From positions 1-55,642 of IMG/VR virus record IMGVR_UViG_3300037042_000951: 55,642 bases of DNA, one strand, 5' to 3'. This stretch comes from a virus. Lineage: Duplodnaviria > Caudoviricetes. The notes beneath the pieces are model-generated. The model was not told the origin of the DNA. It saw only the letters and a program-made list of their open reading frames with translations, and made no database searches. Of this stretch, positions 6,418 to 33,023 are shown one piece after another. The position numbers and the translations under genes were made by a program. Position 1 is the stretch's first letter. Each line of letters begins with the position of its first letter.

Positions 6418-6435
6418 GTATTTGGCTGGGCGCGA

Positions 6436-6746: not shown

Positions 6747-6832
6747 TCATCTTTTTTCAAGGTACTTGTTTCCTCTAATATTATTTTGTTGTACACTTCA
6801 GACATCTAGGGTTTTACGATGACCGAGAGTAG

Positions 6833-11451: not shown

Positions 11452-11633
11452 CAGGGTTAGAACTTTTAGTTAAGCAGTTAGATGAAAAGACAGAGCAGTT
11501 AAAAGAATCGGTAGTTATAGGTAATTTAGATCACGTTCAGTATCAAAGGCTTTGTGGAGAGATTAGAGGTCTGCTCCTTGCAAAGGGTTACGTATTAGAC
11601 CTCAGAGACAAATTGGAGAACACGGATGAGTGA
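11448..11633 (+). CDS. Small conserved head-module protein
   Basis: 61 aa with YQRLCGEIRGL; coupled to the portal and GroES genes. Confidence 0.75.
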   Translation: MTGLELLVKQLDEKTEQLKESVVIGNLDHVQYQRLCGEIRGLLLAKGYVLDLRDKLENTDE

Positions 11634-12030
11634 AACGTTAGACTTAAATAAGGCGGTAGATTTGGCGCAGCTGCTTGATAAGTCAAGTGAAGAAAAGGCA
11701 ACACAACTCCCTAAACCTTCTGGGTATCGCATTTTGTGCGCTATTCCTGAGGTAGAGAAAGAGTTTGACAGTGGGATTTTAAAAGCAGACGAAACCCTAA
11801 GATACGACGAATTGTTGACGACCGTATTGTTTGTCGTAGATTTAGGTCCAGATTGCTATAAAGACCCAACCCGTTTCCCAACTGGGGCTTGGTGTAAAAA
11901 AGGTGATTTTGTCCTTGTTAGACCTAACGCTGGCACTAGATTGGTTATTCACGGGCGCGAGTTCCGCATTATTAACGATGATTCTGTGGAAGGCGTAGTT
12001 GACGATCCCCGTGGCATTAAACGTAAATAA
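11626..12030 (+). CDS. groES: GroES/Cpn10-like co-chaperonin
   Basis: PSGYRIL, mobile-loop SGIL, KKGDFVL...AGTRLVIHGREFRIINDDSVEGVV follow the Cpn10 pattern. Confidence 0.85.
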   Translation: MSETLDLNKAVDLAQLLDKSSEEKATQLPKPSGYRILCAIPEVEKEFDSGILKADETLRYDELLTTVLFVVDLGPDCYKDPTRFPTGAWCKKGDFVLVRPNAGTRLVIHGREFRIINDDSVEGVVDDPRGIKRK

Positions 12031-12042
12031 GGAGAAGACGAT

Positions 12043-13047
12043 ATGGATAACTATAAGTTTCCTGATGAAGTAGATGACGTAAAAGATGAGGGTAAACCCG
12101 TAGAAGAGGAAGTAGAATCTAAGGGTAAACCCGTAGAAGACGAAGACAAGATCGAAATTGAGATTGAAGATGACACCCCTGTTGAAGATAGAGGTCGTAA
12201 AACTTCAAAACCTGATTTTGTCGAAAAAGTCGAAAAAGATGAATTAGACCAATATTCCCAAGAAGCACGAAGCAAAATTGATGCTTTTAGGAAGTTTTAT
12301 CATGATGAGCGTAGGGAGAAAGAAAAAGCCTTACGAGAGCAGCAAGAAGCTGTTCAAGTAGCTAAAAGCCTCTACGAAGAGATAAAACAGCTTAAAGGTA
12401 GGGTCAATTCTAGCGACGAAGCAGCAGTTAACTCCTTTAAAACAAGTGCCGAGCAGGAATTGGCAATGGCTAAGAAGGAATATAAAGAGGCTTATGACGC
12501 TGGAGATTCGGAAAAATTAGTCGAAGCACAGGATAAATTAACCTCCGCTAAGATGAAAATTGACAAAGCCTCTAGCTACGCTGAAAATATAAATCAACGA
12601 AGGGCTTTACAAGAGCAAGAAAATGAAGTAAAAATACCTCAACAGACGGAAGCAGCGCCTGTCCGTGACCAAAAAGCTTCGGCTTGGCAAGAGCGTAACT
12701 CTTGGTTTGGTCAAGATGACGAAATGACAAGCCTAGCCCTAGGGCTACACGAGAAGCTTGTCAAAGAAAACGGACTAGCATATGCAACCACTGACGAGTA
12801 TTACAAGCGCATAGATGAAACTATGCGTAGGCGATTTCCTGAAAACTTTCAGGATGAAAAAGTAGACGATGGTAGAAACGATGAAAAGGTAGCGGCTCGT
12901 GTAAAACCGAGTACCGTTGTTGCACCTGCGAGTAGAAGTACTTCTTCTAAAAAGATAAAATTGAATACGTCACAGTTATCTATAGCGAAGAAGCTAGGTC
13001 TAACCCCAGAGCAATACGCCCGTGAACTTTTAAAAATGGAGGCTTAA
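12043..13047 (+). CDS. Putative scaffolding protein
   Basis: Acidic N-terminus, coiled coil, C-terminal IAKKLGLTPEQYA; lies between portal and capsid. Confidence 0.75.
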   Translation: MDNYKFPDEVDDVKDEGKPVEEEVESKGKPVEDEDKIEIEIEDDTPVEDRGRKTSKPDFVEKVEKDELDQYSQEARSKIDAFRKFYHDERREKEKALREQQEAVQVAKSLYEEIKQLKGRVNSSDEAAVNSFKTSAEQELAMAKKEYKEAYDAGDSEKLVEAQDKLTSAKMKIDKASSYAENINQRRALQEQENEVKIPQQTEAAPVRDQKASAWQERNSWFGQDDEMTSLALGLHEKLVKENGLAYATTDEYYKRIDETMRRRFPENFQDEKVDDGRNDEKVAARVKPSTVVAPASRSTSSKKIKLNTSQLSIAKKLGLTPEQYARELLKMEA

Positions 13048-13497
13048 ATGCCAACAAACAGATTGCAAAGAGAAGTAGATAACCGTGAAGTAGCTGAGCG
13101 TCCTAAACAGTGGATGCCCCCCGATCTTCTCCCTGAGCCTGATAAACAGGCTGGTTATGCGTATCGTTGGATTCGTGTTTCAATGCTGGACAAGCCAGAC
13201 CCACGCAATATCTCATCGAAACTGAGAGAAGGTTGGGAGCCTGTCACGTTGGAAGAGCAACCCAAATTCAAACTGTTAGCTAATCCCAGTGGTCAGTTTA
13301 AAGACAACATTGAGATTGGCGGGTTATTGCTTTGCAAGACTCCCGAAGCATTTGTTGAACAACGGAAGGCTCATTACGACAAGCTAACCGCCCAACAGAC
13401 GGAGGCTGTAGACAATAATCTCATGCGCCAAAGCGACGCAAGGATGCCCCTCTTTAACGAGAGAAAGTCCTCAAGTAGCTTTGGAAAAGGAACTTAA
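13048..13497 (+). CDS. Conserved head-module protein
   Basis: 149 aa with YRWIR and LREGWEPV; coupled to the scaffold gene. Confidence 0.7.
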   Translation: MPTNRLQREVDNREVAERPKQWMPPDLLPEPDKQAGYAYRWIRVSMLDKPDPRNISSKLREGWEPVTLEEQPKFKLLANPSGQFKDNIEIGGLLLCKTPEAFVEQRKAHYDKLTAQQTEAVDNNLMRQSDARMPLFNERKSSSSFGKGT

Positions 13498-13514
13498 TTT
13501 TTTAGGAGATTTAA

Positions 13515-14414
13515 ATGGCTTATCCTATTATTGACGCCCCGTACGGGCTGAAGCCCATTAATCTTATTGGTGGACAAGTATTTGCTGGATCGACTCGCAA
13601 TATTCCGATTCAGTACGCATTTAACACCAATATTTTTTATGGCGATGTTGTAGGTATTGAGCGTGGTTTTGCCGTGCGTTGTGATCTGACACTTGGTAAT
13701 GCCACTATCCGTGGTGCTGCAGGTACTGGAATTGTTGGTGTATTTTTAGGTTGCACATTCACTAACCCTGTAACTAAGCAAAAGCAGTTTACTCAATTTT
13801 GGCCCGCTGGTACTTTGGCTGGTGACGCAGTTGCTATTGTGACTGACGATCCAGATACATTGTTCCGTACTGCGGTAGTTGGTGCTGGTGGTACTACCGC
13901 TATTGCTTCTGTTGCACGTATGGACATCGGTCAAAACGTTGAAGGCTCTAACTTGGCTGGTAACATCAATACTGGTAATTCGTCTAACGCTATCGTAGCT
14001 GCTAGCGCAGCGAATACTTCAACTTTACCTTTACGTATTGTTGACGTTGTTCCTGACACAGCTATTGTTGCTACAGCGGTTTTATCTAGTGGCGGCGGTG
14101 GTACAGCTTTATCTTGTACTGGTCTTACAAGAACGCTCCCACTTGGAACGGATGTTGCGTATTTAGCTGCTAATGGTCAACTAATTGGTACTGGCTCGCG
14201 TGTTTCAGCCGCTGTAGCAGGCACTGGAACACAGACTGTTAACATCAATTCCCAGGCTGTAACGGTTAATTCCCCGTTAGGTACTTCCTCTACGGCTATT
14301 ACTATTCCAGCAGCAAGCACTATGGTATTTACGATTTATCAAGAAGCGATTGTAAAATTCAATTTTGGTAATCATAGTTACTATAGCAATACTACCAACT
14401 CAGCTACAATATAA
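13515..14414 (+). CDS. Capsid decoration/cement protein
   Basis: A/G/T-rich beta protein directly upstream of the major capsid gene; SD AGGAG. Confidence 0.65.
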   Translation: MAYPIIDAPYGLKPINLIGGQVFAGSTRNIPIQYAFNTNIFYGDVVGIERGFAVRCDLTLGNATIRGAAGTGIVGVFLGCTFTNPVTKQKQFTQFWPAGTLAGDAVAIVTDDPDTLFRTAVVGAGGTTAIASVARMDIGQNVEGSNLAGNINTGNSSNAIVAASAANTSTLPLRIVDVVPDTAIVATAVLSSGGGGTALSCTGLTRTLPLGTDVAYLAANGQLIGTGSRVSAAVAGTGTQTVNINSQAVTVNSPLGTSSTAITIPAASTMVFTIYQEAIVKFNFGNHSYYSNTTNSATI

Positions 14415-14424
14415 GGAGCTATAA

Positions 14425-15336
14425 ATGGCTATTTCACGCGCACAACTATTGAAAGAGCTCCTTCCTGGCTTGAACGCCTTGTTCGGCTTGGAGTATGCTC
14501 GCTACGGTGAAGAACACAAAGAGATCTACGAAACTGAGACCTCTGAGCGTTCTTTTGAAGAAGAAACAAAACTGTCTGGATTCTCAGCTGCACCAGTCAA
14601 AAACGAAGGTTCTGCCATCGCTTATGACAATGCACAAGAGGCTTGGACAGCTCGCTACAACCACGAAACTATCGCCCTTGGCTTTAGCTTGACTGAAGAG
14701 GCAATTGAGGACAACCTCTATGATTCTTTAGCTGCTCGCTATACCAAAGGTCTGGCTCGTGCTATGTCTTATACCAAGCAGGTAAAAGCTGCTGCTGTAT
14801 TGAATAACGGCTTCTCATCTGCTTATGTAGGTGGTGATGGCGTTTCTCTGTTCAGCACTGCTCACCCACTAGTATCTGGCTCAACTAACAGTAACACCCC
14901 AGCCACTCAAGCTGATTTGAACGAAACTTCGTTGGAAAACGCAGTTATTCAGATCGCCGCTTGGACGGATGAGCGTGGTCTGTTGATCGCTGCCAAACCT
15001 AAGAAGTTGGTAATCCCACCCGCACTCATGTTCGTGGCAACTCGTTTGCTTGAGACTGAATTGCGTGTTGGTACCAACAATAACGACATCAATGCAATTA
15101 AGAACAATGGCTCGATTCCAGATGGTTACACTGTTAACCACTTCTTGACCGACACAAACGCATGGTTCTTGACCACTGATGTACCTAACGGTATGAAGCA
15201 TTTTGTACGTACACCATTGAGCAATTCAATGGACGGTGACTTTGACACTGGCAACGTGCGTTACAAGACCCGTGAGCGTTATAGCTTTGGTTGGTCTGAC
15301 CCACTCGGAATGTATGGATCGAGCGGTTCAATCTAA
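14425..15336 (+). CDS. Major capsid protein (HK97 fold, Mu gpT-like family)
   Basis: MAISRAQLLKELLPGLNALFG..., PKKLVIPPAL, RERYSFGWSD; strong SD; followed by a terminator. Confidence 0.92.
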   Translation: MAISRAQLLKELLPGLNALFGLEYARYGEEHKEIYETETSERSFEEETKLSGFSAAPVKNEGSAIAYDNAQEAWTARYNHETIALGFSLTEEAIEDNLYDSLAARYTKGLARAMSYTKQVKAAAVLNNGFSSAYVGGDGVSLFSTAHPLVSGSTNSNTPATQADLNETSLENAVIQIAAWTDERGLLIAAKPKKLVIPPALMFVATRLLETELRVGTNNNDINAIKNNGSIPDGYTVNHFLTDTNAWFLTTDVPNGMKHFVRTPLSNSMDGDFDTGNVRYKTRERYSFGWSDPLGMYGSSGSI

Positions 15337-16213: not shown

Positions 16214-19075
16214 ATGTCAGGATGGACAGTAGTAGACACAGCAACAAATAAATCGCTACCTGTAGGCGGCACACAAAATTCGGGTACAGGTGTTCCCTAT
16301 ACTGCGCCTGTACCTTGGTCACAAGACCCCGTACAGAAAATGCGGGTTTCAACACCTCAGTCGTTAGTTGATACGGACTTTGAATATGGTACTCAACCTA
16401 CCAAATGGGAGTCTATTGCCCTTCAAAATAACCGTCAAAGCTGCTATTACATTGCGCAGCAGCCTATAAACGTTACTTCTATTGTGGGTAACAGCAATGG
16501 TCAAGGCACAGTAAACATTACATTTACGGGGACTATTCCTAATAACACACCTATTTATATTCAAAACTCTCTACTCTCCACTATTAATGGTTGGGCGTGG
16601 GTTTATAATGGTGGAACAAATACTACAGTTATAGCATTTATAGCTCCGCCACTTGCAGGCACTCTTGGTATTATTAATGGTCAACAATACTATCGTGCTA
16701 CACTAAGCTACGTTTATCTTGGTTATTTTTACTCTACAGGCAGTATATATGTTACCAATATACAGATTCTTAGTGGTGTCTCAACTATAATTACTACTAA
16801 TGAATCTCACGGTTTAAGTGCTGGCAGTTATGTTTATTTAAACTCTGCTCGCATTTTTGGTACTAGTAACTTAGGTGGGGCGTATATCGTTGAGTCAGTC
16901 CCTAATTACAATCAACTTTATATAAGAACTAACGGTTTTACTTCTAACTTTGGTATTTCGTTTTTTAACACACAAGTTCTTTATGCTCGTCCAGCTGGAT
17001 ATGTTGAACCTCGTACTTTTGATGGGGGTGTAGCGTTTTCAGCAGGCGCAGCAGTTCCTAATACACAGTTGATCCGCCAAACAAGACGTTATTTCCGTTA
17101 TCAGTCTGGTAAAGGTCTGCAGTTTTCTACTGGTTCGTGTTTAAAACCAGCACTGTTTGTAAATAGTCTTAATAGTCTTGGTGGCGGTACTGTCCAAGTT
17201 ATTACTCGCTATAACCATAACTTAGTGGTCGGTACACGAATTCAAGTTCAGGGTGCTAATCAAGGTTACTTTAACGGTACATTTACAGTTACCGCTATAA
17301 TTTCACCAACTCAATTTTATTATGTAATTTCTTCAAGTGGTGTAATCCCTCCTGGTCTTGCAACAGGTCCTGGAATTAGAGTTACCCCGTTATCTTGGTA
17401 TGGTTCTGTTAGCCGTCTTGGTATGTTTGACCAACAGAATGGTATGTTCTTTGAGTATGATGGACAGCAGCTATATGCAGTTTTGCGCAATAGCATAAAT
17501 CAAATTAGCGGTACTGTTCAAGTATTTCAAGGTTTTTCACAAGTTAATGGCACTGGAACAGCGTTTACAACTCAGCTGCAGCCAGGTCAGTTTATCGTTA
17601 TTCGTGGACAAACCTATCGTATAGTTGACATTAATAGTGATACTTTACTGTATGTAAGCCCAGAGTATCGTGGGCAATCAACTTTTGACGCGCTTGTTTC
17701 TCAGACTGTTGATTTAAGAATCCCACAGTCTCAATGGAATTTAGATAGATGTGATGGCACAGGTCCTTCTGGCTACAACATTGATCTAACCCGTATGCAG
17801 ATGTGGTACATCGACTACTCTTGGTATGGTGCTGGTTTTATTCGTTATGGACTTCGTGGTACTAACGGTCAAGTTACTTATGTACACCAAATCCAGAACA
17901 ACAATAGACAGTTTGAAGCCTATATGCGTTCGGGTAACATGGGTGCTCACTACGAGTTGTCTAGCCTTGGACCAATAACATATCCAGTACAGCAGCTTGG
18001 AGCTAGTTCAGCAGCTCTTACTGCAGATGTATCAAACACGGCTACTACCCTCCCAGTTAACTTCACTGGTTCATTTAACACTGGCGGCGGTATAGTACAA
18101 ATTACTTCAGGGACTACTGAATATATTAGTTATTCTGGTATATCAGGACTTAATTTAACTGGCTGCGTTCGTGGTTTTGGCGGTACTAGGGCAAATGACT
18201 ATGTTAATGGAACCACTGTTACACCATCATCAATACAACTAGCTGACGCAACGGGGTTCCCACCTTCTGGTACTCTAAAAGTATCACAAGCGTTTAACGT
18301 CACTGAGTATATAAGTTACGCAGCTATAACAAGTAATGGTATTGCTTATGGTTTAATTAGAGGCGTTACTGGCGGTTTTCCAAGTGCGTTTAATTTCACT
18401 GGCGGTACGACCGTTTCTCTTGAACTAGCTTCTCCAGATGCTGTACCTTCTTTATCACATTGGGGTTCATCTGTAATTATGGATGGTCGCTTTGATGATG
18501 ATAAGTCGTTAATTTTTAACTACGGTACCGCACCATTAACAACTAATACGTCTACCACTCAACTTACTCCAATTCTTGCTATCCGTGTTGCACCATCTGT
18601 GGATAATGGTACTACTGGAGTACTTGGGGCAAGAGAAGTTATTAACCGTATGCAGTTAGAGTTAGTTCAATTAGGTATTTATGCAACTGGACCGTTATTG
18701 GTTAACTTAGTTTTAAACGGATTTGCTACAAATTTTAGTGGTCAGTTTACTTCGCCAATAACACAGGGTGTTGGGGCTTATACATCATCATTGGCTCAAA
18801 TCGCTGTAAATAATCTTAACTCTGCACAGTTACAAGGTGGTGAGTCTGTATCAGCTGCGTTTACCAATACAAACGGTGAAACGACCCTAGATTTGTCTGG
18901 AGTTCGTGATTTGGGCAACTCGATTATAGGTGGCGGCATATCCAACTCTGTACCGTCTTCTTATGCTGGTGTTTACCCAGATGGTCCAGACATTTTGTAT
19001 GTATGTGTAACTCCTTTGACAGCAACGGCTATTACAGTTAATGCTCGTTTGTCTTGGAAAGAAGCACAGGCTTAA
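16214..19075 (+). CDS. Large beta-rich virion (fibre/spike-like) protein
   Basis: 953 aa; RQTRRYFRYQSGKG and YIDYSWYGAG lectin-like core interrupted by small repeated beta domains. Confidence 0.7.
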   Translation: MSGWTVVDTATNKSLPVGGTQNSGTGVPYTAPVPWSQDPVQKMRVSTPQSLVDTDFEYGTQPTKWESIALQNNRQSCYYIAQQPINVTSIVGNSNGQGTVNITFTGTIPNNTPIYIQNSLLSTINGWAWVYNGGTNTTVIAFIAPPLAGTLGIINGQQYYRATLSYVYLGYFYSTGSIYVTNIQILSGVSTIITTNESHGLSAGSYVYLNSARIFGTSNLGGAYIVESVPNYNQLYIRTNGFTSNFGISFFNTQVLYARPAGYVEPRTFDGGVAFSAGAAVPNTQLIRQTRRYFRYQSGKGLQFSTGSCLKPALFVNSLNSLGGGTVQVITRYNHNLVVGTRIQVQGANQGYFNGTFTVTAIISPTQFYYVISSSGVIPPGLATGPGIRVTPLSWYGSVSRLGMFDQQNGMFFEYDGQQLYAVLRNSINQISGTVQVFQGFSQVNGTGTAFTTQLQPGQFIVIRGQTYRIVDINSDTLLYVSPEYRGQSTFDALVSQTVDLRIPQSQWNLDRCDGTGPSGYNIDLTRMQMWYIDYSWYGAGFIRYGLRGTNGQVTYVHQIQNNNRQFEAYMRSGNMGAHYELSSLGPITYPVQQLGASSAALTADVSNTATTLPVNFTGSFNTGGGIVQITSGTTEYISYSGISGLNLTGCVRGFGGTRANDYVNGTTVTPSSIQLADATGFPPSGTLKVSQAFNVTEYISYAAITSNGIAYGLIRGVTGGFPSAFNFTGGTTVSLELASPDAVPSLSHWGSSVIMDGRFDDDKSLIFNYGTAPLTTNTSTTQLTPILAIRVAPSVDNGTTGVLGAREVINRMQLELVQLGIYATGPLLVNLVLNGFATNFSGQFTSPITQGVGAYTSSLAQIAVNNLNSAQLQGGESVSAAFTNTNGETTLDLSGVRDLGNSIIGGGISNSVPSSYAGVYPDGPDILYVCVTPLTATAITVNARLSWKEAQA

Positions 19076-19078
19076 TGT

Positions 19079-19399
19079 ATGGCAAAGTCTCCCGCATGGA
19101 CTCGCAAAGAAGGTAAGAACCCTGAAGGCGGCTTAAATGCCAAGGGCAGGGCGTCTTACAATGCTGCTAACCCTGGGAAACCAGGGCTAAAGCGTCCACA
19201 GCCAGAAGGTGGCTCAAGGCGGGATTCGTTCTGCGCTCGCATGAAGGGTATGAAACGTAAGTTAACTTCAGCCAAAACAGCTAACGACCCAGATAGTCGC
19301 ATCAACAAGTCTTTACGGGCTTGGAACTGCAAAGAAGGTGGGGCTGTTCGTGGCGGCGGCTGCGAGATTCGTGGCAAGACCAAAGGGAGAATGGTATGA
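19079..19399 (+). CDS. Small basic protein (DUF6321-like) with C-terminal GG/GKT tag
   Basis: GKNPEGGLNAKGR...RRDSFCARM...LRAWNC followed by KEGGAVRGGGCEIRGKTKGRMV. Confidence 0.8.
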   Translation: MAKSPAWTRKEGKNPEGGLNAKGRASYNAANPGKPGLKRPQPEGGSRRDSFCARMKGMKRKLTSAKTANDPDSRINKSLRAWNCKEGGAVRGGGCEIRGKTKGRMV

Positions 19400-19932
19400 G
19401 ACTTACAGGTCTTAATAAATCAATAACAAATGCGCTTGGGAAACTATCCCCCCAACCTAAACAAACAATTGTAAAAGGTCCTATAGGGTTTCCCGCTGGC
19501 GGTATGGGCGCTGCAATGAGAGGTGGTAGTGGCTTAACCCCAGTCGCAAGTCAAAGTGGTAGTGGCTTAACCCCAGTCGCAAGTCAAAGTGGTAGTGGCT
19601 TAACCCCAGTCGCAAGTCAAAGTGGTAGTGCTATGGGAATTACTCCCCCACCTGGAGGTGCTGGTTTAGCTTCTATGTCAACACAGCAAATGCAAGGGAT
19701 ACTAAAAGGAACGCCAGTAGGTTACTCTGGGCCTAAAATGACAAGTTTTTTTGGAAACAAACCACTTGCACGACACCAATTACAACAACCACCAACGCGT
19801 ATGAAAGAAGGTGGTTCAGTTAAAAATAAAACTAGCAGTAAAACCTACAAATCTGGTGGTTCTGTATCATCTGCCTCTAAACGTGCTGATGGCTGTGCTA
19901 TTAAAGGTAAGACCAGAGGAAAAATGGTATGA
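19396..19932 (+). CDS. Low-complexity basic protein with C-terminal tag (probable start ATG 19396)
   Basis: ATGA overlap with the upstream stop; ends KSGGSVSSASKRADGCAIKGKTRGKMV. Confidence 0.8.
   Translation: MRLTGLNKSITNALGKLSPQPKQTIVKGPIGFPAGGMGAAMRGGSGLTPVASQSGSGLTPVASQSGSGLTPVASQSGSAMGITPPPGGAGLASMSTQQMQGILKGTPVGYSGPKMTSFFGNKPLARHQLQQPPTRMKEGGSVKNKTSSKTYKSGGSVSSASKRADGCAIKGKTRGKMV
19523..19630 (+). repeat. 33-bp perfect tandem repeat, about 3.3 copies
   Basis: Encodes (SGLTPVASQSG)3. Confidence 0.95.
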
Positions 19933-20162
19933 ATGCGTTGGAACTTTGGACTGGCGGACTTACAATATTTATAGCGTTTATTGGGTACGTCATGCACGAA
20001 AAATTCAACGAACTAAAACGAATTGATATTCTATTAAACAAGACAAGAGAAGAGGTAGCCCGTGAAAACGTTACTAAAACAGAAGTTAAAAACATTATGG
20101 AGCACATTGATGCTCGCTTTAACAAGCTTGAAAGCAAAATTGACCAGCTTATTCAAAAGTAA
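19929..20162 (+). CDS. Small membrane protein (N-terminal TM + coiled coil)
   Basis: LWTGGLTIFIAFIGYVM followed by a heptad-rich tail. Confidence 0.75.
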   Translation: MNALELWTGGLTIFIAFIGYVMHEKFNELKRIDILLNKTREEVARENVTKTEVKNIMEHIDARFNKLESKIDQLIQK

Positions 20163-20165
20163 ATA

Positions 20166-20519
20166 ATGCCAAGTACATCTAAAAAGCAACATAAATTCAT
20201 GGCGGCGGTAGCCAAAAATCCATCGTTTGCCAAAAAAGTAGGAGTACCTGCTAGCGTTGGGCAGGAATTTTTAACTGCCGACAAAGGCAAAAAATTCAAT
20301 AAAGGTGGAGCTATGAAACACGAAGACATTAAGATGGACAAGAAGGTTGTCAAAAAAGCCGTTGGTATGCATGATAAACAACAGCATGGTGGTAAAAAAA
20401 CTAATCTAGCTACTCTTAAAAAAGGTGGCTCGGTATTTCGTAAAGCCGCTGACGGTGTTGCTACTAAAGGCAAGACCAAGGCTACTATGATTAAGATGAA
20501 TAAAGGCGGAGCTTGCTAA
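20166..20519 (+). CDS. Small Lys-rich protein with tag variant
   Basis: Ends LKKGGSVFRKAADGVATKGKTKATMIKMNKGGAC. Confidence 0.8.
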   Translation: MPSTSKKQHKFMAAVAKNPSFAKKVGVPASVGQEFLTADKGKKFNKGGAMKHEDIKMDKKVVKKAVGMHDKQQHGGKKTNLATLKKGGSVFRKAADGVATKGKTKATMIKMNKGGAC

Positions 20520-20520
20520 T

Positions 20521-21315
20521 ATGAAAAAGAAGATTCGTAAGTTTCAAGAAGGCGGCTTTAGCGCTGAGCAAGAAGAATGGCTAGGCGGAGCTGACCGTAC
20601 TGACCCATATATTTTGGCTCGCATGCGTAGAGCCGTGCCTGATAAGAAACCTATGGCTTCTGAAATGGGGGATGATTCCCCTGCAGGTAAATCTGGTTAT
20701 GGCGAAGAAAATGAATTACCGACCACTACTAGAGTCCCCAACGCCCCCACTAAGACCTCTACTGCGACTGTATCTAAACCCCCTGTTAAAAAACCTAGCC
20801 AAGCAGAAATAGATGCAGAGAAAAAACGCATGGAAGACATTGGCAAAAAGCAAGGTCTAAAAGGGTTTTATCCAGAAGAAATGCTTATTGGCGGCGGTGG
20901 TTTAAAAGTTCTACGGGAAGCAGGTAAAGCATTAGCTGGAAAAATAGCTGGAAACCGTGCATTAAAAGAGTATGTAGTGCCAAAACTACCTGCTCCTTCC
21001 TCTGGCTCTGGTACTCCTGCTTTACCCTCACCTACTCCAAAACTGACTTATGACAAGGCTGGTGCAAGGGCTAAAGCTCGTACCGAGCGGGCAGAAATGC
21101 GTGATGAGACTATGCGTAGAGAAAATGCTGAGCGATACGGCGTAACAGATACTGAAGCCCCTGGATATGAAGCACTACGTGGCGCGTTCATGCGTAAGGG
21201 TGGTAGAGTAAAAACTAAGACCAAATCCTATAAATCTGGCGGTACAGTATCCTCGGCTTCTAAACGAGCAGATGGTATTGCTACCAAAGGTAAAACCCGT
21301 GGGAAGATGTGCTAA
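20521..21315 (+). CDS. Disordered protein with C-terminal tag
   Basis: Ends YKSGGTVSSASKRADGIATKGKTRGKMC. Confidence 0.8.
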   Translation: MKKKIRKFQEGGFSAEQEEWLGGADRTDPYILARMRRAVPDKKPMASEMGDDSPAGKSGYGEENELPTTTRVPNAPTKTSTATVSKPPVKKPSQAEIDAEKKRMEDIGKKQGLKGFYPEEMLIGGGGLKVLREAGKALAGKIAGNRALKEYVVPKLPAPSSGSGTPALPSPTPKLTYDKAGARAKARTERAEMRDETMRRENAERYGVTDTEAPGYEALRGAFMRKGGRVKTKTKSYKSGGTVSSASKRADGIATKGKTRGKMC

Positions 21316-21849
21316 ATGCCGATTGAGCCTGTAGACCCTTCTAAAAAGGTTGGCGATGGTAAGAGTGATAAATACACTCCTCCCAAGGAAAAGTTCGGAC
21401 CTAGCGAGTACGATAAGGCAGCAGAGAAAGTGAAGCAAGATAACGAAAAACAACAAATTCGCAAGATGGGGGATGCTTTAGATAAAGCAGGTGTACCGCT
21501 CCCTAAAAAAGAGGCGTTCCCAAAAACCACAGCAGCATTTGAAGAAATTGCTAGATCTGATGCAGAGCGTGAAACGCGTAAAGCTAGGGCTGAAGTAAGC
21601 AGGATAGCAGGAGAGCAAAAAGCAAAAGTTAAAGCTGAAAGCCCCCGCACGTATACGGAAAGACTGCAAGATATGGGCAGACTGCCTAAACCTAGCGGTG
21701 CAGTTGGGGCAAAAATTGAACTTGAAAAAGGCATGATGGGTAGTAATATGCCAAAACCTAAGTTAAAAGCTGGTGGAGTAGTATCCTCTGCTTCTAAACG
21801 GGCTGATGGGTGTGCAGTTAAAGGTAAAACTAGAGGAAAAATGGTATGA
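21316..21849 (+). CDS. Charged protein with C-terminal tag
   Basis: Ends LKAGGVVSSASKRADGCAVKGKTRGKMV. Confidence 0.8.
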   Translation: MPIEPVDPSKKVGDGKSDKYTPPKEKFGPSEYDKAAEKVKQDNEKQQIRKMGDALDKAGVPLPKKEAFPKTTAAFEEIARSDAERETRKARAEVSRIAGEQKAKVKAESPRTYTERLQDMGRLPKPSGAVGAKIELEKGMMGSNMPKPKLKAGGVVSSASKRADGCAVKGKTRGKMV

Positions 21850-22118
21850 GACCTAGTCGTGGAATGGGAGCTATAAACCCTTCTAAAATGCCTGGTGCCA
21901 AGAAAAAGGCGCGTAGGGACGACACCGACTTTACCCAATTTAAAGAAGGCGGTAAGGTTAATGCTGCGGGTAATTACACCAAACCCAGTTTGCGTAAGCG
22001 GATTGTTTCTCAGGTGAAAGCAGCTGCAACACATGGTACTGGCGCAGGTCAATGGTCAGCTCGTAAAGCGCAGTTAGTAGCTAAAAAATATAAGGCGGCT
22101 GGCGGTGGCTATAAATGA
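21846..22118 (+). CDS. DUF5872-like N-terminal half
   Basis: YTKPSLRKRI...GQWSARKAQLVAKKYKAAGGGY. Confidence 0.7.
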   Translation: MRPSRGMGAINPSKMPGAKKKARRDDTDFTQFKEGGKVNAAGNYTKPSLRKRIVSQVKAAATHGTGAGQWSARKAQLVAKKYKAAGGGYK

Positions 22119-22363
22119 GTGGATTGGCAAAATCTCAGCGTTCTTTAAAGGCTTGGGGAGACCAGAAGTGGACAACCAAGTCAGGGAAGAAGTCGTCCGA
22201 GACAGGAGAAAGGTACCTGCCAAAAAAAGCAATCGAAGCCCTAAGCCCACAGGAGTACGCAGCAACAACACGAGCAAAACGAGCAGGAAAAGCACAGGGA
22301 AAGCAGTTCGTCCCGCAACCAAAAGCAGTAAAAGCAAAAGTAAAACCATTTAGGAAAATTTAA
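22115..22363 (+). CDS. DUF5872-like C-terminal half
   Basis: QRSLKAWGDQKWTTKSG...RYLPKKAIEALSPQEYAAT; ATGA-coupled. Confidence 0.7.
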   Translation: MSGLAKSQRSLKAWGDQKWTTKSGKKSSETGERYLPKKAIEALSPQEYAATTRAKRAGKAQGKQFVPQPKAVKAKVKPFRKI

Positions 22364-22377
22364 GAAAGGTATTAAAA

Positions 22378-22659
22378 ATGATTACGTTCACTCTTGATAA
22401 CAGAGCAGCAGAAGCAATGATGGCAACACTTAATGCCAATATCCCAAATGCTTCTTTTGTCCAAGAACTAAATGTTCAATACACTGAACAAACTGTTGTA
22501 GATATAATTGTGCCGCCAGAGCCAGTAGCTGAACCAGCTGAACCAGTAGTTGAGGCTGAGCCAGTAGTTGATGCTGAGCCAGAAACATTAGCTCCTGCTG
22601 AGACGTCAGCCCCACCAGAAGATGCACCAGAGGGATTAATTACGCCAGAGCAAGAGTAA
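22378..22659 (+). CDS. Acidic Pro/Glu-rich hypothetical protein
   Basis: 93 aa, in operon orientation, with RBS. Confidence 0.65.
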   Translation: MITFTLDNRAAEAMMATLNANIPNASFVQELNVQYTEQTVVDIIVPPEPVAEPAEPVVEAEPVVDAEPETLAPAETSAPPEDAPEGLITPEQE

Positions 22660-22662
22660 ACC

Positions 22663-23601
22663 ATGACTACATCCAGCACTACTACGTTTAATTTAGACCT
22701 CAATAACCTTGTTGAAGAGGCTTTTGAGCGTTGTGGCGCTGAAATTCGTTCTGGTTATGATATGCGGACTGCCCGCAGGTCTTTAAATTTATTGACTATT
22801 GAGTGGGCAAACCGTGGTATTAACCTGTGGACTATTGAGCAAGGTCAGATTCCAATTGTTACTGGGCAGCTGTCTTACCCCATTCCTTCTGACACAATTG
22901 ATCTTTTAGACCATGTAATTCGTAATGGGTCTGGGCAGAATCAGATAGATATTAATATCAGCCGTATTTCGGAGTCTACTTACTCTACGATTCCTAATAA
23001 GAATGCGCAGGGAAGACCTATTCAAGTCTGGATTAACCGTCAATCGGGTATGACTAACGCAGTTGCAGCAACTACTTTAATAGGGAATGGCACCTCAATT
23101 ATTCAAATTAACCCAACAGATACCACAATTGTAGTTGCCAATGCTTCTGGGTTAGCTACATCTGGCTATATTAAGATTGATTCAGAAACGATTGGTTACT
23201 CAAATGTATCAGGTAATCAACTATTAAATTGTTCTCGTGGGCAAAACAGTACAACCGCAGCCATACATTTTGCAGGCGCTCCTATCTATGTTCAAAACCT
23301 ACCAAATATCAATGTTTGGCCTACTGGAGATGGTGGGGGTCCGTACACATTTGTTTACTGGCGGTTAAGAAGAGTTCAAGATGCTGGTAATGGCGTTACA
23401 GAACAAGATATTCCTTTTAGATTTTTACCTTGTATGGTTGCTGGGTTAGCTTTTTACTTATCCCAAAAGTTACCAGATGCGTTGCCAAGAATGCAGTTTC
23501 TAAAGGCAGAATACGAAGAGCAGTGGTTAATGGCTTCTACAGAAGACAGAGATAAGGCAGCTAACCGATATGTACCTCGAAGTTTATATTATTCGGGGTA
23601 A
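22663..23601 (+). CDS. Head-tail adaptor/connector protein with an inserted beta domain
   Basis: Helical N-terminus (LVEEAFERCG..ARRSLNLL..WANRG), beta middle and helical C-terminus (CMVAGLAFYL), typical of podophage adaptors. Confidence 0.65.
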   Translation: MTTSSTTTFNLDLNNLVEEAFERCGAEIRSGYDMRTARRSLNLLTIEWANRGINLWTIEQGQIPIVTGQLSYPIPSDTIDLLDHVIRNGSGQNQIDINISRISESTYSTIPNKNAQGRPIQVWINRQSGMTNAVAATTLIGNGTSIIQINPTDTTIVVANASGLATSGYIKIDSETIGYSNVSGNQLLNCSRGQNSTTAAIHFAGAPIYVQNLPNINVWPTGDGGGPYTFVYWRLRRVQDAGNGVTEQDIPFRFLPCMVAGLAFYLSQKLPDALPRMQFLKAEYEEQWLMASTEDRDKAANRYVPRSLYYSG

Positions 23602-23604
23602 ATC

Positions 23605-24027
23605 GTGCCTAGTAAATTTAGTAGTGGTAAATATGCAATTGCCGAATGTGATCGGTGTGGGCAGCAATATAAGTTAAAACAGCTTAGAAAGCTGATCGTT
23701 AAACAACAAATATACGACATTAAAGTTTGTCCTACTTGTTGGGACCCAGATCAACCGCAGTTATCGTTGGGGCTATATCCAGTAAATGATCCACAGGCAT
23801 TACGAGAGCCAAGACCCGATATTAGCTATGTAAATTCAGGTTTAAATGGCTTACAATTGACTGAAACGATAACCACTAATGTTGACAGTAACGGGCAGGT
23901 TAGTGGGGGTAGTAGAACTATCCAGTGGGGGTGGAACCCTGTGGGCGGGGCTAGTAGTTTTGATAGTGAGCTAACCCCTAATAATTTAATTGCAGTAGGG
24001 CAAGTAGGTACGGTAACGGTAACATAA
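23605..24027 (+). CDS. Conserved Zn-ribbon virion-module protein
   Basis: CDRCG...CPTCWD, PQAL.EPRPD. Confidence 0.7.
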   Translation: MPSKFSSGKYAIAECDRCGQQYKLKQLRKLIVKQQIYDIKVCPTCWDPDQPQLSLGLYPVNDPQALREPRPDISYVNSGLNGLQLTETITTNVDSNGQVSGGSRTIQWGWNPVGGASSFDSELTPNNLIAVGQVGTVTVT

Positions 24028-24037: not shown

Positions 24038-24220
24038 GTGGGATACAAAAAAGATGCAGATGGCGTAGTTAGCAAAGGTAAGACTGATGCTAAAGTTTTC
24101 CCTAATGACGGTGCAAAAATCGTTGATAAGGGTCCAAAAGGTAGCAAAAGTAGCCTTAATAAGAATATGAAGTCTATGGGTCGTAATATGGCTCGTTGCG
24201 CTAATCAAAGGGGTCGATAA
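24038..24220 (+). CDS. Small basic protein with tag-like N-terminus
   Basis: SD AAGGAG + GTG; YKKDADGVVSKGKT. Confidence 0.7.
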   Translation: MGYKKDADGVVSKGKTDAKVFPNDGAKIVDKGPKGSKSSLNKNMKSMGRNMARCANQRGR

Positions 24221-24513
24221 TGGCTAAGTACTCTAAAAAAGTAATGGGTAAAGAAGTTGGCAACGCTGAAGTATATGCTGAGCCACATACCATGTCAGGT
24301 AAAAAAATTGGTACAAAAGAGGCTATGAAGGCTGTTAGCCGTCCCCCTGATCCAAACACCTTGTTGGCTAAACAATCGACTCCAGGTGGGCAGAACGTTG
24401 CTCGTGTCAGCATGGGTGATCCAGCTAGTGATAATGTCAAAACAACTGGTATCAAAATGAGGGGCACGGGCGCAGCAACTAAAGGTGTGATGTCTCGTGG
24501 ACCAATGGGCTAA
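24220..24513 (+). CDS. Small basic protein
   Basis: Ends GIKMRGTGAATKGVMSRGPMG. Confidence 0.75.
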   Translation: MAKYSKKVMGKEVGNAEVYAEPHTMSGKKIGTKEAMKAVSRPPDPNTLLAKQSTPGGQNVARVSMGDPASDNVKTTGIKMRGTGAATKGVMSRGPMG

Positions 24514-28088: not shown

Positions 28089-28922
28089 ATGCCATATTCT
28101 TCTTTAAAACTCGATTTAATGGTTACTGGTACCCAAAACAACCTTTGGGGGGACATTACAAATCTTAATATTGGAACAGCGCTTGAAGAAGCTATTGTTG
28201 GTAGAGCATCAGTAGTAATAGCTAATCCGCCAGCGTCTCCTCTAGCTGCAGATTTAACTTTAGTTGATTCCCCTGCTAGTCAAGTGGCTAGACATTTTAT
28301 ATTAGATATAACTTCAGCGGGCACTTTAGTTTCTACGCAAACTGTTCAAGTACCATCAATTGATAAGCCCTACATTATAGAAAACAACACTACAGGCGGG
28401 CAAGCGCTTTTAATTAAAACTGCTGGTGGTGCTGGAGTTACAGTCCCAGCTGGTACTAAAACACTAGTGTATGCATACAATGATGGTGTATCTAATAACG
28501 TAGTTTATGGAATTAATTACCTAAGTGCTCCTACTATTACAGGAGGAACTTTTACAGGCCCAACATTAAGCCAACCTATAACTAACGGTGGTAAATTAGT
28601 AGTAAGTGCTCTTGGTACTTTATTTACAGGTACAACAACTATTAATCTAGCAATTGCTCAGGTCTATACAGCCACTATAACTGCTAGTAATGTAATTACT
28701 TTTGCGTTTTCTAATGCACCACCAGCTGGGCAGTCTCAAGTAGTTTTACTACGATTAACAAACGGCGGTAGCGGAACAATAGTCTGGCCCGCAGGTACTA
28801 AGTTTGCAAACGGAGGCACTGCTCCATCTCTAACAATATCTGGCGTAGATATGCTAGGTATTTATTATGACGTTACTACAACTACATATATGGTATTTGT
28901 TATTGGGACAGACATACAATGA
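28089..28922 (+). CDS. Tail fibre/baseplate-like structural protein
   Basis: WGDITN N-terminal module; C-terminal ..WP...F.GG.AP.L....VD module typical of fibre proteins. Confidence 0.65.
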   Translation: MPYSSLKLDLMVTGTQNNLWGDITNLNIGTALEEAIVGRASVVIANPPASPLAADLTLVDSPASQVARHFILDITSAGTLVSTQTVQVPSIDKPYIIENNTTGGQALLIKTAGGAGVTVPAGTKTLVYAYNDGVSNNVVYGINYLSAPTITGGTFTGPTLSQPITNGGKLVVSALGTLFTGTTTINLAIAQVYTATITASNVITFAFSNAPPAGQSQVVLLRLTNGGSGTIVWPAGTKFANGGTAPSLTISGVDMLGIYYDVTTTTYMVFVIGTDIQ

Positions 28923-31456
28923 GTTCTGAACTTTTAATTATGGGTAGTTCACCACAGTCTTATACATTAGATGCGTGGGGTCAAAACCCAAGGGGACAGC
29001 TTGGAGAAAATCCACATTATTTTGGGTTTCAACAACTAACAACAGGGGCGTTATCTACAGAAAATTTTGTTCAAGTCGAGAGTTGTGGTTTTGCTCATTT
29101 TGCTTTAACTAGCGGGGGAAACTTATATGGCTGGGGCAATTCAGAAGCTATAGGAAGTGGTGTTTTTCTTAATTATGTTAGTTATTTAACACCCCAGTTA
29201 GTATTGTCTAATGTAGCCAAGTTTTCTATTGGGAATGGGCAGTTTGCTTCTCCCTCCGCTGATTATATAGTTATGGCTATTAAAACAGACGGCACTTTAT
29301 GGATGACAGGAAACACTAATTACAATTGGGGGAGAACCTCGTTTACATATGCTACAGATTGGAATATATGGACCCAAGTAAATACGGTTGGGTCAATTTG
29401 TCAAAAAGTATCAGTTTCTAAAAATGATTTTGGGACTAGTAGTTTATTTGCGTTATTACTAAAAACTGACGGCACTATGTGGGCTATAGGAAACAATGCT
29501 AATGGGCAGCTAGGGCAAGGCAATACAACTAGTAATTTTGCTGTTTTTCAGCAAGTAAAAGGTACTGGTGGGGTTGGATTTTTAACTAACGTTGTTGATA
29601 TATCTGCAGGCGGATACAGTTCATATGCTGTTATTAGTTCTGGCGCTGCTTATGGGTGGGGGCTTAACAGTAATGGAGAAGTTGGTGATGGGACTACGTT
29701 TCCAACCAATGTAACTTCGCCTTCACAGATTAAGTATGGGGCTGTTTTAGGTGGTGCTAATGTATCTACAGCTGAAAAAATATTTGCATGGAGTAGGGGT
29801 GCATACATAACTGTAACGCCAGGATCAGGTCCAGTTGCCTATCAATTAAAAACTAATTTATATGGGTGGGGTAAAGCAGATAGTACTAACCTCGCACTAA
29901 CTGATTTTTGGGCTGGTTCTAGTACAACTGCTGCGCTACCTATAATCGGGGCTAAAAATTCAATAGGTGCACTTCTTCCTGAGCCACTTACTGTTACTAA
30001 AGTGATGGGGTCTTTATTTGCAAATACAGCAATTATAACTAGTGGTGGTTTGTTGCTTAATTGGGGTGGTATTGCTAATAATGCGTGGGGGCAAGCTGGT
30101 AGAAGCGAAGCTCTTCAATATGGCAGTATTTTATACCCAACAGCTGTAGATGCTGCCACAAATTGGTCTTTTATACCTGAAGTAGAAGCTGCTACAAACG
30201 ATTTTACCTATGGGTTTAGCGCACCCGCAGCTCATACGTTAGCTGGCAAGTCAAATAATAAAATTTATGGAACAGGGGCTAATATTCAACAGTCATTCGG
30301 TATATATAATAAAAATAATAGCCCTACTCAAATTGGAACAAATCGCCAATGGATAACTTTATCTTCTGGTGATGACGAAGTTAGTCTATTTATAAATAAT
30401 CAAGGTGAACTTTATGGTGTTGGAAATAACACTCTTTCGCCACTTGGAAATTTAGGAAGTCCATCTCGCTTTTCGCCTACACAGTTATCTGCCATAACTA
30501 CTCCGTGGGTTGACGTTTCTACAAATGGTTATTCAAGCGCAGCTATTCTTAAAGGCGGTATTTTATATGCTTGGGGATATAACAATCAAGGCGAGTGTGG
30601 TTCTGGTGTACCAACTATTACTTCAATTTCGCAAGTAATAAACTATACTGGGGGACTTCCAACTAGTGGAGCATTATCTGTATTTATGGGTGGCTTTATT
30701 AGTCAGGGGTGGAGTTCTGTTCTTTACGATAACGGAAAAGTTTATACTTCTGGCAGTAATTTATATTATACGCTTGGTAATGGCGGTGGTGGCATTTTTA
30801 ACCGTGTTTTTTTTGCTCCAGTTCAAGATTACACTTTTAATGATTTACAAAATGTAGAAAAAGTTTGGTATGGTTATGCCCATGCTTTCGCTAAATTAAG
30901 TGTCGGTGATCCAGCATCTGGTGGCAACAATATATTTGCGTGGGGGGATAATAGTACAGGCGCACTAGGAGTTGGAAACACAAGTGTTTATACTCGTGCA
31001 ACACCATCTGGTGTATATAATCCTTTCCTTGAAATAACAAAAATTGTAGGTGGAGATGGATTTTCTATAGTCCTTTTTGCTGACGGAACCGTTGAAGCGA
31101 CGGGGACAAATACTTATGGGCAGTTAGGTAACGGCACTACCACGAATACTACGGTATTTGCTCCTGTAAGAAATTCAACTAATACGGCGGATTTAATTGA
31201 TGTTGTTGATATTGGTGCTACCCGCGACTCCGCATTTGCTGTTCTCTCAAATGGTGACGTTTTCTTATGGGGGAGAAACACTATAAATACTGGGTTTCCA
31301 GCTAAAACAGCTGATCCTTATTATGGGCTTCTTGTTCCAAGTGACAACACAGCGTTTTTTACATTACCTACATTAGTTGGAAATTACCCAAACGTAGCTT
31401 CTATACCAACAACTCCTACAGCAATTAATGCTGCTTTTTTATTAAGGAATATATGA
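28919..31456 (+). CDS. RCC1/BLIP-II repeat beta-propeller protein (probable receptor-binding protein)
   Basis: Repeated DGTxWxxGxNxxGQLG units. Confidence 0.85.
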   Translation: MSSELLIMGSSPQSYTLDAWGQNPRGQLGENPHYFGFQQLTTGALSTENFVQVESCGFAHFALTSGGNLYGWGNSEAIGSGVFLNYVSYLTPQLVLSNVAKFSIGNGQFASPSADYIVMAIKTDGTLWMTGNTNYNWGRTSFTYATDWNIWTQVNTVGSICQKVSVSKNDFGTSSLFALLLKTDGTMWAIGNNANGQLGQGNTTSNFAVFQQVKGTGGVGFLTNVVDISAGGYSSYAVISSGAAYGWGLNSNGEVGDGTTFPTNVTSPSQIKYGAVLGGANVSTAEKIFAWSRGAYITVTPGSGPVAYQLKTNLYGWGKADSTNLALTDFWAGSSTTAALPIIGAKNSIGALLPEPLTVTKVMGSLFANTAIITSGGLLLNWGGIANNAWGQAGRSEALQYGSILYPTAVDAATNWSFIPEVEAATNDFTYGFSAPAAHTLAGKSNNKIYGTGANIQQSFGIYNKNNSPTQIGTNRQWITLSSGDDEVSLFINNQGELYGVGNNTLSPLGNLGSPSRFSPTQLSAITTPWVDVSTNGYSSAAILKGGILYAWGYNNQGECGSGVPTITSISQVINYTGGLPTSGALSVFMGGFISQGWSSVLYDNGKVYTSGSNLYYTLGNGGGGIFNRVFFAPVQDYTFNDLQNVEKVWYGYAHAFAKLSVGDPASGGNNIFAWGDNSTGALGVGNTSVYTRATPSGVYNPFLEITKIVGGDGFSIVLFADGTVEATGTNTYGQLGNGTTTNTTVFAPVRNSTNTADLIDVVDIGATRDSAFAVLSNGDVFLWGRNTINTGFPAKTADPYYGLLVPSDNTAFFTLPTLVGNYPNVASIPTTPTAINAAFLLRNI

Positions 31457-32919: not shown

Positions 32920-33023
32920 ACGAGTTTATTGCCTTATTTAATGCTTATCCTTTTGGCGTTTGCCTTGGATTAGCAGTTTTTATTAACTACACTTTTTTAC
33001 TAATTGTCCATGCGTGTGAGTGA
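32916..33023 (+). CDS. 35-aa hydrophobic peptide between holin and endolysin
   Basis: GTGA overlap with the holin stop; MNEFIALFNAYPFGVCLGLAVFINYTFLLIVHACE. Confidence 0.5.
   Translation: MNEFIALFNAYPFGVCLGLAVFINYTFLLIVHACE

Follow-up and report, generated by a model that had tools for sequence, protein, structure and literature searches.

We analysed a 55,642-bp virus record from IMG/VR (IMGVR_UViG_3300037042_000951; the whole stretch is called the window below, with an estimated completeness of 88%) and found that five of six consecutive genes at 19079-21849 end in a related peptide of about 25 residues, which we term the tag. Selection acts on this peptide rather than on the DNA that encodes it, and comparison with related loci indicated that the tag is a portable module attached to diverse lysine-rich proteins, whose parts in front of the tag we call bodies. 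By analogy with known cargo systems, we tentatively read the tag, at somewhat less than even odds, as a portable C-terminal anchor that may load polycationic proteins into the phage head. The tagged genes (g1, g2, g4, g5 and g6), the untagged g3 and the genes that follow them are listed here with the matches of a 30-position profile built from the five tags.

19079..19399, + strand: g1, 106 residues, DUF6321 body (residues 12-82) followed by the short tag variant KEGGAVRGGGCEIRGKTKGRMV (nt 19331-19396); profile match 19322-19396, E 1.4e-13
19396..19932, + strand: g2, 178 residues, Gly/Pro/Ser/Gln-rich body with an extra KEGGSV element; tag 19840-19929, E 1.5e-20
19929..20162, + strand: g3, 77 residues, untagged, hydrophobic N-terminal segment and charged, helical-looking tail
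20166..20519, + strand: g4, 117 residues, conserved N-terminal module of 43 residues; tag 20412-20492, E 2.8e-15
20521..21315, + strand: g5, 264 residues, mosaic basic body with an extra RKGGRV element; tag 21223-21312, ending KMC, E 3.6e-19
21316..21849, + strand: g6, 177 residues, conserved N-terminal motif and two long predicted helices; tag 21757-21846, E 7.8e-20
21846-22118, + strand: g7, untagged small basic protein (PHROG 17747 and 14910 for the g7/g8 pair)
22115-22363, + strand: g8, untagged small basic protein closing the cassette just upstream of the adaptor gene
24038..24220, + strand: g9, 60 residues, tag core ADGVVSKGKT at the N-terminus (24044-24094), E 0.004
24220..24513, + strand: g10, 97 residues, C-terminus RGTGAATKGVMSRGPMG (24460-24510), by eye a possible distant tag variant

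The profile gave exactly five full matches in the record, at the five places where a first-pass annotation of the same DNA had reported tags, and one weak sixth copy, that of g9. Two further variants named in that annotation fared differently: ADGVVSKGKT in g9 corresponds to the weak match, and 24050-24084 within this gene belongs to a DNA repeat family (D2), while RGTGAATKG at the end of g10 gave no profile match and is a visual resemblance only. The cassette genes lie on the same strand as the structural genes, with overlapping stop and start codons, as at g1 and g2 (ATGA) and at g6 and g7. Three tag copies end in ATGGTATGA, and the next gene does begin at the embedded ATG, as had been proposed; an overlapping ATG is also carried by 51 of 172 stop-terminal tags in related loci, and these overlaps are ordinary translational coupling. 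The description of the untagged gene as a membrane protein is upheld in so far as g3 has a hydrophobic N-terminal stretch and a charged tail, so that its membrane nature is putative.

An exhaustive HMMER search of 1.84 billion cluster representatives returned 5,554 tagged representatives (50% identity) at E ≤1e-3 and 252 at E ≤1e-10. Searching 5.8 billion proteins by a word index gave 5,033 matches, in which every named protein was "hypothetical" and the sole Pfam family was DUF6321. No model in Pfam, PHROGs or NCBIfam covers the tag, and the ESM Atlas returned only unnamed viral clusters. Profile matches in the PDB were to designed propeller repeats, reached through a KFETGGSVHS-like repeat at 3.9-5.2 bits per stretch, and were discarded as spurious. 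IMG/VR held at least 600 pattern matches, 500 of them confirmed, and the best 80 were analysed as loci; prokaryote genomes (one per species, 185,579) added 14 loci only, all on contigs of metagenome-assembled genomes (MAGs) and none in an isolate. These 94 loci, the top scorers, represent a single lineage, and counts drawn from them are not phylogenetically independent. The MAG loci were found in bins of at least 10 unrelated taxa (Microbacteriaceae, Crocinitomicaceae, Bdellovibrionota, Clostridia, Methylopumilus and others) and are likely mis-binned phage contigs; because binning contamination is likely, their labels carry no host evidence.

Comparison of these copies defined the anatomy of the tag, which spans 22-30 residues with the consensus K-x-GG-x-V...(A/G)(D/G)G-(C/I/V)-(A/E)-x-(K/R)-GKT-(K/R)..M(V/I/C). 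Read in order, it consists of K-x-GG-x-(V/I/M), a short Ser/Ala-rich linker, (A/G)(D/G)G-(C/I/V)-(A/E)-x-(K/R)-G-K-T-(K/R) and usually G-x-(M/F)-(V/I/C), and the invariant columns among 143 tags are GG, G, G, K and T. It ends exactly at the stop codon in 172 of 239 copies (from 81 sources, 74 of which hold at least two), and a stereotyped extension of 8-9 residues, KM-x-x-GG-x-C, which resembles the beginning of a further unit, follows it in 40; g4 of the window carries such an extension of 8 residues (KMNKGGAC, 20493-20516). Among the best 150 representatives, the tag runs up to the last residue in 137 and is followed by 8-11 more residues in 10. Some tags end early, at ...GKT(R/K)(A/I) (51/464). 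We also saw tandem tags and mini-proteins of 39-73 residues that consist of little beyond one or two tags, and extra K-x-GG-x-V elements are scattered through the bodies at 0.44 per body.

The pattern G-x4-G-K-T, which is that of Walker A, was present in 461 of 491 non-identical tagged proteins, compared with 309 of 9,820 composition-matched shuffled tails (3.1%). Despite this likeness to a P-loop, the surrounding context is absent: the loop is neither preceded by a hydrophobic strand nor followed by a helix, only 2-5 residues remain between the Thr and the end of the protein, no P-loop Pfam family was matched, and neither a Walker B motif, a strand-loop-helix arrangement nor a predicted fold accompanies the pattern. 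Because the strand-loop-helix context is lacking, the tag is not a P-loop NTPase, and the resemblance is a pattern match rather than membership. AlphaFold2 (AF2) modelling of the tag region alone gave a predicted local distance difference test score (pLDDT) of 59.6 and no fold, and the peptide is thus predicted not to fold by itself.

Cysteine was concentrated in the tag, making up 3.2% of its residues and 0.10% of body residues. Among the 456 of 491 tags that fitted a regular expression, 300 had Cys in the middle only (...DG-C-A...), 84 downstream only, 14 at both sites and 58 at neither (Fisher p 5e-38, uncorrected for kinship). A rule of one cysteine per tag, with a hairpin bringing the thiol to one place, was nevertheless dropped, given that 51 of 464 tags end early at ...GKTRA, many tags of the g6 family are Cys-free, and the capsid protein is Cys-free as well.

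The argument that selection acts on the peptide had been made from synonymous differences among the window copies, and it held when extended to 63 standard tags from 52 sources. DNA identity among the window copies (19849-19932, 21232-21315 and 21766-21849) is 74-85%; the peptides of the three standard-length tags are 84-92% identical, with only 45-64% of codons the same at identical residues. Across the larger set, the same-codon fraction was 0.449 for 13 pairs from the same genome and 0.400 for 1,940 pairs from different genomes, with 0.367 expected from pooled codon usage. Because codon sharing at synonymous sites was near random, selection acts at the level of the peptide, and conservation of RNA or DNA was rejected as the cause of the repeat. 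None of the 13 within-genome pairs reached a same-codon fraction of 0.9, and no gene conversion or recent duplication within genomes was seen. Tag copies in one genome are therefore old, neither recently duplicated nor homogenised. The suggestion that the repeat doubles as a recombination anchor is not supported, since copies within a genome are as diverged synonymously as copies between genomes and those of the window reach no more than 74-85% identity as DNA.

In contrast to the tag, the bodies are diverse and mosaic, lysine-rich and largely non-globular. As first claimed, the five tagged bodies of the window show no evident homology (best pairwise E 0.27 in a ten-sequence database). A total of 227 bodies fell into 82 single-linkage BLAST clusters with 62 singletons, and the largest cluster (93 members) was joined by shuffled modules of 30-63 residues, not by full-length similarity; the g5 body is tied to other bodies by such short common modules only, and g2 and g5 have a longer C-terminal stretch of 45 residues in common. 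The median isoelectric point (pI) of 468 bodies was 9.52, with 78% above pI 9 and 4% net negative, compared with pI 5.5 for the phage's other structural proteins. Lysine made up 13% of body residues, alanine 11.5%, glycine 9.8% and methionine 5.2%, and bulky hydrophobics made up 21%, versus 32% in the phage's other structural proteins. The g6 protein, modelled with AF2 from 101 sequences (pLDDT 64.7; predicted template modelling score, pTM, 0.24), showed helices at residues 31-57 and 72-108 and no globular fold. Its body family comprises 672 clusters, and all 120 proteins among the matches listed, with bodies about 51-96% identical to that of g6, carry the tag. The g2 body had no homologue across the 80 loci at E 1e-5; it contains a perfect 33-nt tandem repeat at 19523-19630 (three overlapping 42-nt copies, 100% identical) that encodes GSGLTPVASQS three times and looks like a recent expansion within the low-complexity body.

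Two of the bodies point to the tag being an appended module. The g1 body matches Pfam DUF6321 (PF19846; residues 12-82, 67.4 bits against a cutoff of 28.5), and the tag is appended in 13 of 78 DUF6321 orthologues, the other 65 stopping cleanly at ...AWNC. DUF6321 occurs without the tag in hundreds of cyanophage and pelagiphage genomes, and it forms the C-terminal domain of a T4-like cyanophage protein annotated "structural protein". The N-terminal module of g4, for its part, heads proteins of jumbo phages (including 121Q-type ones), some annotated as virion structural, and does so in PHROGs too; the 150 representative tagged proteins gave one Pfam match, which is spurious, and five PHROG matches, all to this 43-residue module. 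Because DUF6321 and the g4 N-module are independent units, the tag has been fused to pre-existing bodies, at least in g1 and g4. The view of the tag as a modular signal with interchangeable bodies was thus borne out by the 82 body clusters, the 5,554 representatives and the occurrence of DUF6321 with and without the tag. The cargo once suggested for it fared less evenly. Composition (lysine 13%, median pI 9.5) fits DNA-condensing proteins, and no enzyme or known anti-defence domain was matched in Pfam or PHROGs among the 150 representatives, which gives no support to anti-defence cargo of the enzymatic kind and leaves room for small non-enzymatic inhibitors.

The first-pass annotation had advised looking for diverse N-terminal bodies next to the same capsid family, and the neighbourhood of the window, with the same capsid and adaptor genes, was indeed found in 80/80 IMG/VR loci and 13/14 MAG loci. 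The capsid gene is followed by an insert that varies, by the DUF6321 gene (g1) and g3, and then by one to six tagged genes whose order differs among loci; g7 and g8 lead on to the adaptor, beyond which lie the genes of a zinc-ribbon-like protein of 140 residues, sometimes g9, g10, and that of a tail or virion protein of 230 residues. Capsid identity to the window was 79-92% in the 45 of 80 loci that reach the capsid gene and 85-90% in five MAG loci, and in all loci reaching the capsid gene the tagged genes lie 4-7 kb downstream of it on the same strand. The adaptor gene was found in 72 of the 80 loci, g7 in 73 and g8 in 56, the latter two never tagged. Homologues of g10 were present in 38 loci, and g3 is a conserved cassette member with homologues in 48, none of its 54 open reading frames being tagged. 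The tagged genes thus make up a hypervariable cassette, located after the capsid genes and before the head-tail adaptor gene, and, judging from the 94 best-scoring loci and seven cultured relatives, the tag appears specific to one lineage of uncultured podoviruses.

The capsid protein of this lineage, which by itself accounts for more than 8,000 clusters at 90% identity, has cultured relatives in Synechococcus phage MinM2, Planktothrix phage Pag-Yong1 and Pra-JY27 (70% identity), Pelagibacter phages HTVC023P and HTVC027P and phage DSL-LC04 (64-65%), Roseobacter phages CRP-901 and CRP-902 (56%), an Alcaligenes phage (49%) and Caulobacter phages (about 40%). A tblastn search of 50,697 phage records with g6 and with the g5 tag region returned no match. 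By eye, a 308-residue protein of Pag-Yong1 and MinM2, located between capsid and adaptor, ends in ...YAKGGAVKRERYASGGMIGRDGCAKRGRTKGRFI, a divergent tag also seen in Pra-JY27, and HTVC023P gp51, just upstream of the adaptor, ends in ...YSRGGGAAVRGMGFKGVF, resembling the g10 ending. Because these divergent tags are visible, it would be wrong to call the tag absent from cultured phages. Scanning the Pag-Yong1 variant against IMG/VR gave three weak loci only. The window's lineage has expanded the tag. Searches for literature on DUF6321, Pag-Yong1, the MinM2 cyanophage and Pra-JY27 found no papers, and the main texts of two papers on the HTVC023P group do not mention internal virion proteins, scaffold or mass spectrometry, "proteom" occurring there only in "proteomic tree".

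Two observations on these relatives stand apart. GenBank records OQ594354, OL906435 and PP438419, filed under three cyanobacterial hosts (Synechococcus, Planktothrix and Planktothricoides), have the same length of 65,014 bp and identical matches, and may be one phage. Pelagibacter phage HTVC033P, found through its g8 homologue, carries at 6400-7800 homologues of g7, g8 and DUF6321 together with lysine-rich mini-ORFs (open reading frames) beside an amidase gene; a small basic protein cluster thus seems, from these homologies, to travel between aquatic phage families, in HTVC033P without the tag.

Short shared peptides on otherwise diverse proteins have precedents in capsid loading. The capsid-targeting sequence of T4 is about 10 residues long and is cleaved off by the prohead protease, and some T4 internal proteins reportedly act against restriction. 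The T4 internal proteins IPI, IPII and IPIII are small, basic and fast-evolving products of a polymorphic locus that enter the prohead by means of this peptide and are injected with the DNA (PMC3012670). T-even internal proteins as a group are described as a highly diverse set with only the capsid-targeting sequence in common, whose lysines contact DNA phosphates (PMC3012670). The tagged proteins likewise combine a short common peptide with diverse lysine-rich bodies in a hypervariable cassette. However, the T4 sequence is an N-terminal leader of about 10 residues that binds the scaffolding core, whereas the tag is C-terminal (172/239 copies; 137/150 representatives), 22-30 residues long and unrelated in sequence, and no protease gene was found in the head module by family searches. 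A closer parallel for its position comes from encapsulins, in which cargo proteins of unrelated families carry at the C-terminus a short peptide that attaches to the luminal side of an HK97-fold shell, suffices for loading and can be transferred to foreign proteins (PMC7355545). Like the tag, this is a conserved short C-terminal peptide on unrelated proteins whose genes lie near that of an HK97-fold shell, and encapsulin cargo peptides are the nearest C-terminal precedent on such a shell. They differ in being about 10 residues long, in binding a hydrophobic luminal pocket and in carrying folded enzymes, whereas the tag is basic and Gly-rich, its bodies are non-globular polycations and its shell would be a DNA-filled capsid. 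The P22 scaffolding protein docks inside its capsid through a basic C-terminal coat-binding domain, a helix-turn-helix, and adenovirus pVIc, a basic C-terminal peptide with a single cysteine, rides on DNA inside the virion. No sequence similarity to either is expected, and the P22 element sits on a single scaffold protein, unlike the tag, which is common to many proteins.

With these precedents in view, we favour docking in the head for four reasons: the tag is terminal, its cassette belongs to the head module, two bodies have links to virions, and T-even internal proteins offer a close parallel. The tag would dock polycations onto one common site during head assembly; the docked proteins would thereby be incorporated inside the head and finally lie with the packaged DNA, where they may act as counter-ions, leave with the ejected DNA, or both. 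A swap of body in front of a constant tag would then quickly change the set of internal proteins. A DNA-associated internal role fits the lysine content of 13%, the median pI of 9.52, the 4% of net negative bodies and the lack of a globular g6 fold. Several points weigh against this proposal. The docking partner has only candidates, the capsid interior or DNA; predicting a complex between the capsid protein and the 46-residue tag region gave no answer (score 0.00, from a shallow capsid alignment of 45 rows, at least 82% identical, and run without controls), which counts neither for nor against docking. No tagged protein is known from a virion, and the main texts searched contain no virion proteomics of one. 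No tag was present within 10 kb on either side of the capsid gene in five of the seven cultured relatives, namely HTVC027P, DSL-LC04, CRP-902 and QDWS535 (capsids 49-65% identical) and GB2A (41%), at whose loci g7-g10 were not found either; because of these tag-free relatives, the capsid family can do without the tag, and a receptor on the capsid would be lineage-specific. Moreover, the g1, g7 and g8 families cluster in HTVC033P too, and their job may not be tied to one capsid. Tag-only mini-proteins (39-73 residues), tandem tags and the g9 copy at an N-terminus fit poorly with a peptide that is an address and nothing else, processing of the T4 kind is unlikely because no prohead protease was found in the head module, and the lack of enzyme or anti-defence domains in the 150 representatives counts on the same side.

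The main rival, which we regard as possible though on the unlikely side, holds that the tag is itself a small phosphate- or nucleic-acid-binding element and not an address. Phosphate groups, whether of DNA, RNA, polyphosphate or nucleotides, would be held by its Gly-rich Lys-Thr loop, with further charge contributed by the lysine-rich bodies. Late in infection, or within the particle, such proteins would serve to coat or condense DNA, and the C-terminal site would reflect the way the module spread and not a need for docking. This would account for the invariant residues being exactly those of G-x4-G-K-T (461/491 versus 3.1% of shuffles) and for the strongly basic character of tag and bodies alike. 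Single-P-loop polypeptides of 40 residues are described as binding single-stranded DNA, nucleoside triphosphates and polyphosphate (bioRxiv 10.1101/2020.07.30.228619), which gives such minimal elements a precedent. Also in its favour are the tag-only and tandem-tag mini-proteins, the g9 copy at the N-terminus, the patchy occurrence of the tag within the capsid family, and the unfolded state predicted for the tag alone (pLDDT 59.6), as expected of a peptide that orders on its ligand. However, the strand before and the helix after a true P-loop are missing, the loop site reads GRT in the Pag-Yong1 variant and GMG in that of HTVC023P, and there is no evident reason why a DNA binder should sit at the extreme C-terminus (172/239) or be confined to a single phage lineage. 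Proteins are also unable to pass the portal along with DNA, so that binding to DNA would not by itself account for any presence in the head. Docking and phosphate binding can be combined, the proteins docking and then binding DNA. In this more speculative version, to which we give slightly less weight than to the phosphate-binding rival, a tag with a Walker-A-like, phosphate-gripping loop would dock polycations in the procapsid and hand them over to the incoming DNA, with exchangeable bodies.

It is less likely, in our judgement, that the tag is a short linear motif for some other hub, such as the portal, adaptor, tail, a phage chaperone or a host protein, and that the tagged proteins are ejected effectors or assembly or takeover factors that need one partner. 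The cassette adjoins the adaptor gene in every locus and turns over fast with the tag unchanged, as in an arms race with one delivery or docking step, and g7 and g8 always follow it here and were not found at the loci of the seven cultured relatives; yet a 12-fold hub would need to serve up to six tagged proteins, the bodies have no recognisable effector domains, and no candidate partner matches the tag in presence and absence, g8 occurring also in tag-free phages. Plain paralogy, in which one ancestral gene was duplicated and the N-terminal parts drifted while the C-terminus stayed constrained, is improbable. It would suit the tandem genes on the same strand in one to six copies, the rapid divergence of low-complexity basic sequence and the 45-residue C-terminal stretch common to g2 and g5, but DUF6321, an independent Pfam family, occurs both bare and with the tag cleanly appended, the g4 N-module is an independent unit in jumbo phages, and bodies are connected by short shuffled modules instead of graded similarity, so that paralogy is contradicted for g1 and g4. 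Least probable is that the tagged proteins are cationic polypeptides active in lysis or on the envelope, with the tag targeting membrane or cell wall. This notion draws on g3, the putative small membrane protein inside the cassette, on a peptidase M15 in the capsid-to-adaptor interval of HTVC023P and on the amidase beside the small basic protein cluster of HTVC033P; the window's endolysin (33004-33486), however, lies 11 kb away, the tag is neither amphipathic nor hydrophobic, and up to six long disordered polycations would be an unusual lysis toolkit.

The cassette sits in a structural block of podovirus type on the + strand of the window, the other features of which are as follows.

7390-8916, + strand: large terminase
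8926-11451, + strand: portal
11626-12030, + strand: GroES-like protein
12043..15336, + strand: head-assembly genes, including those for proteins of 149 and 299 residues
12043-13047, + strand: 334-residue protein with an acidic N-terminal part, putative scaffold by position
14425-15336, + strand: major capsid protein (Pfam Phage_capsid_4 and Mu gpT)
16214-19075, + strand: 953-residue protein, left neighbour of the tag cassette
22378-22659: very acidic 93-residue protein, Pro/Glu/Ala/Val-rich, between the basic cassette and the adaptor
22663..23601, + strand: SU10-type head-tail adaptor (Pfam SU10_adaptor), right border of the cassette region
23605-24027: 140-residue protein directly after the adaptor, with CxxC...CxxC (Cys 15, 18, 42 and 45)
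28919-31456, among the tail genes: 845-residue protein matching PHROG families labelled "regulator of chromosome condensation" over several stretches (best E 3.4e-40)
33004-33486, + strand: endolysin
38569-40467, + strand: 632-residue transglycosylase-domain protein, preceding the 2,214-residue protein
40470-47114, + strand: 2,214-residue protein weakly matching virion RNA polymerase families (E 5.5e-4)

The 334-residue protein is taken as scaffold-like because its gene lies upstream of the capsid gene. The major capsid protein contains no Cys, and a sequence search found no relative of it among PDB sequences. No head-module protein matched a prohead protease family in PHROGs or Pfam; "protease" matches in the module were to capsid-protease fusion families only and aligned over the capsid part. 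Over 84-97% of its length, the 953-residue protein shares 36-39% identity with virion structural or "fiber" proteins known from T4-like cyanomyophages (S-RIM44, Syn1 and S-PM2), and its gene is present in only 2 of the 80 related loci, though inside a podovirus head module; from these matches the gene, which may also hint at the host, was probably acquired by transfer and probably encodes a decoration or fibre protein. With low-complexity filtering applied, a homologue of the acidic 93-residue protein was detected in just 1 of 80 loci, and the 140-residue protein, which resembles a zinc ribbon, is kept in 63 of 80. Judging from its PHROG label, the 845-residue protein probably has RCC1-like repeats and is a propeller-type tail or receptor-binding protein, and the proteins of 632 and 2,214 residues are, from their matches, candidate large internal or ejected proteins in N4-like style.

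Thousands of unannotated proteins carry the tag (5,554 representatives at 50% identity), and its partner, once identified, would give a role to a whole hypervariable gene cassette and bear on whether these podoviruses possess interchangeable internal or ejected proteins in the manner of T4. The tag could possibly be used as a short transferable peptide that brings proteins into capsids or onto DNA, and even if the partner is DNA, a natural phosphate-binding module of 25 residues would be of interest. Should the proteins indeed dock in the procapsid and then pass to the DNA, this would amount to plug-and-play head loading in an uncultured phage lineage that ranks among the most abundant of inland waters, and the tag would be the first C-terminal capsid-targeting signal described for a tailed phage and a ready tag for packaging foreign proteins.

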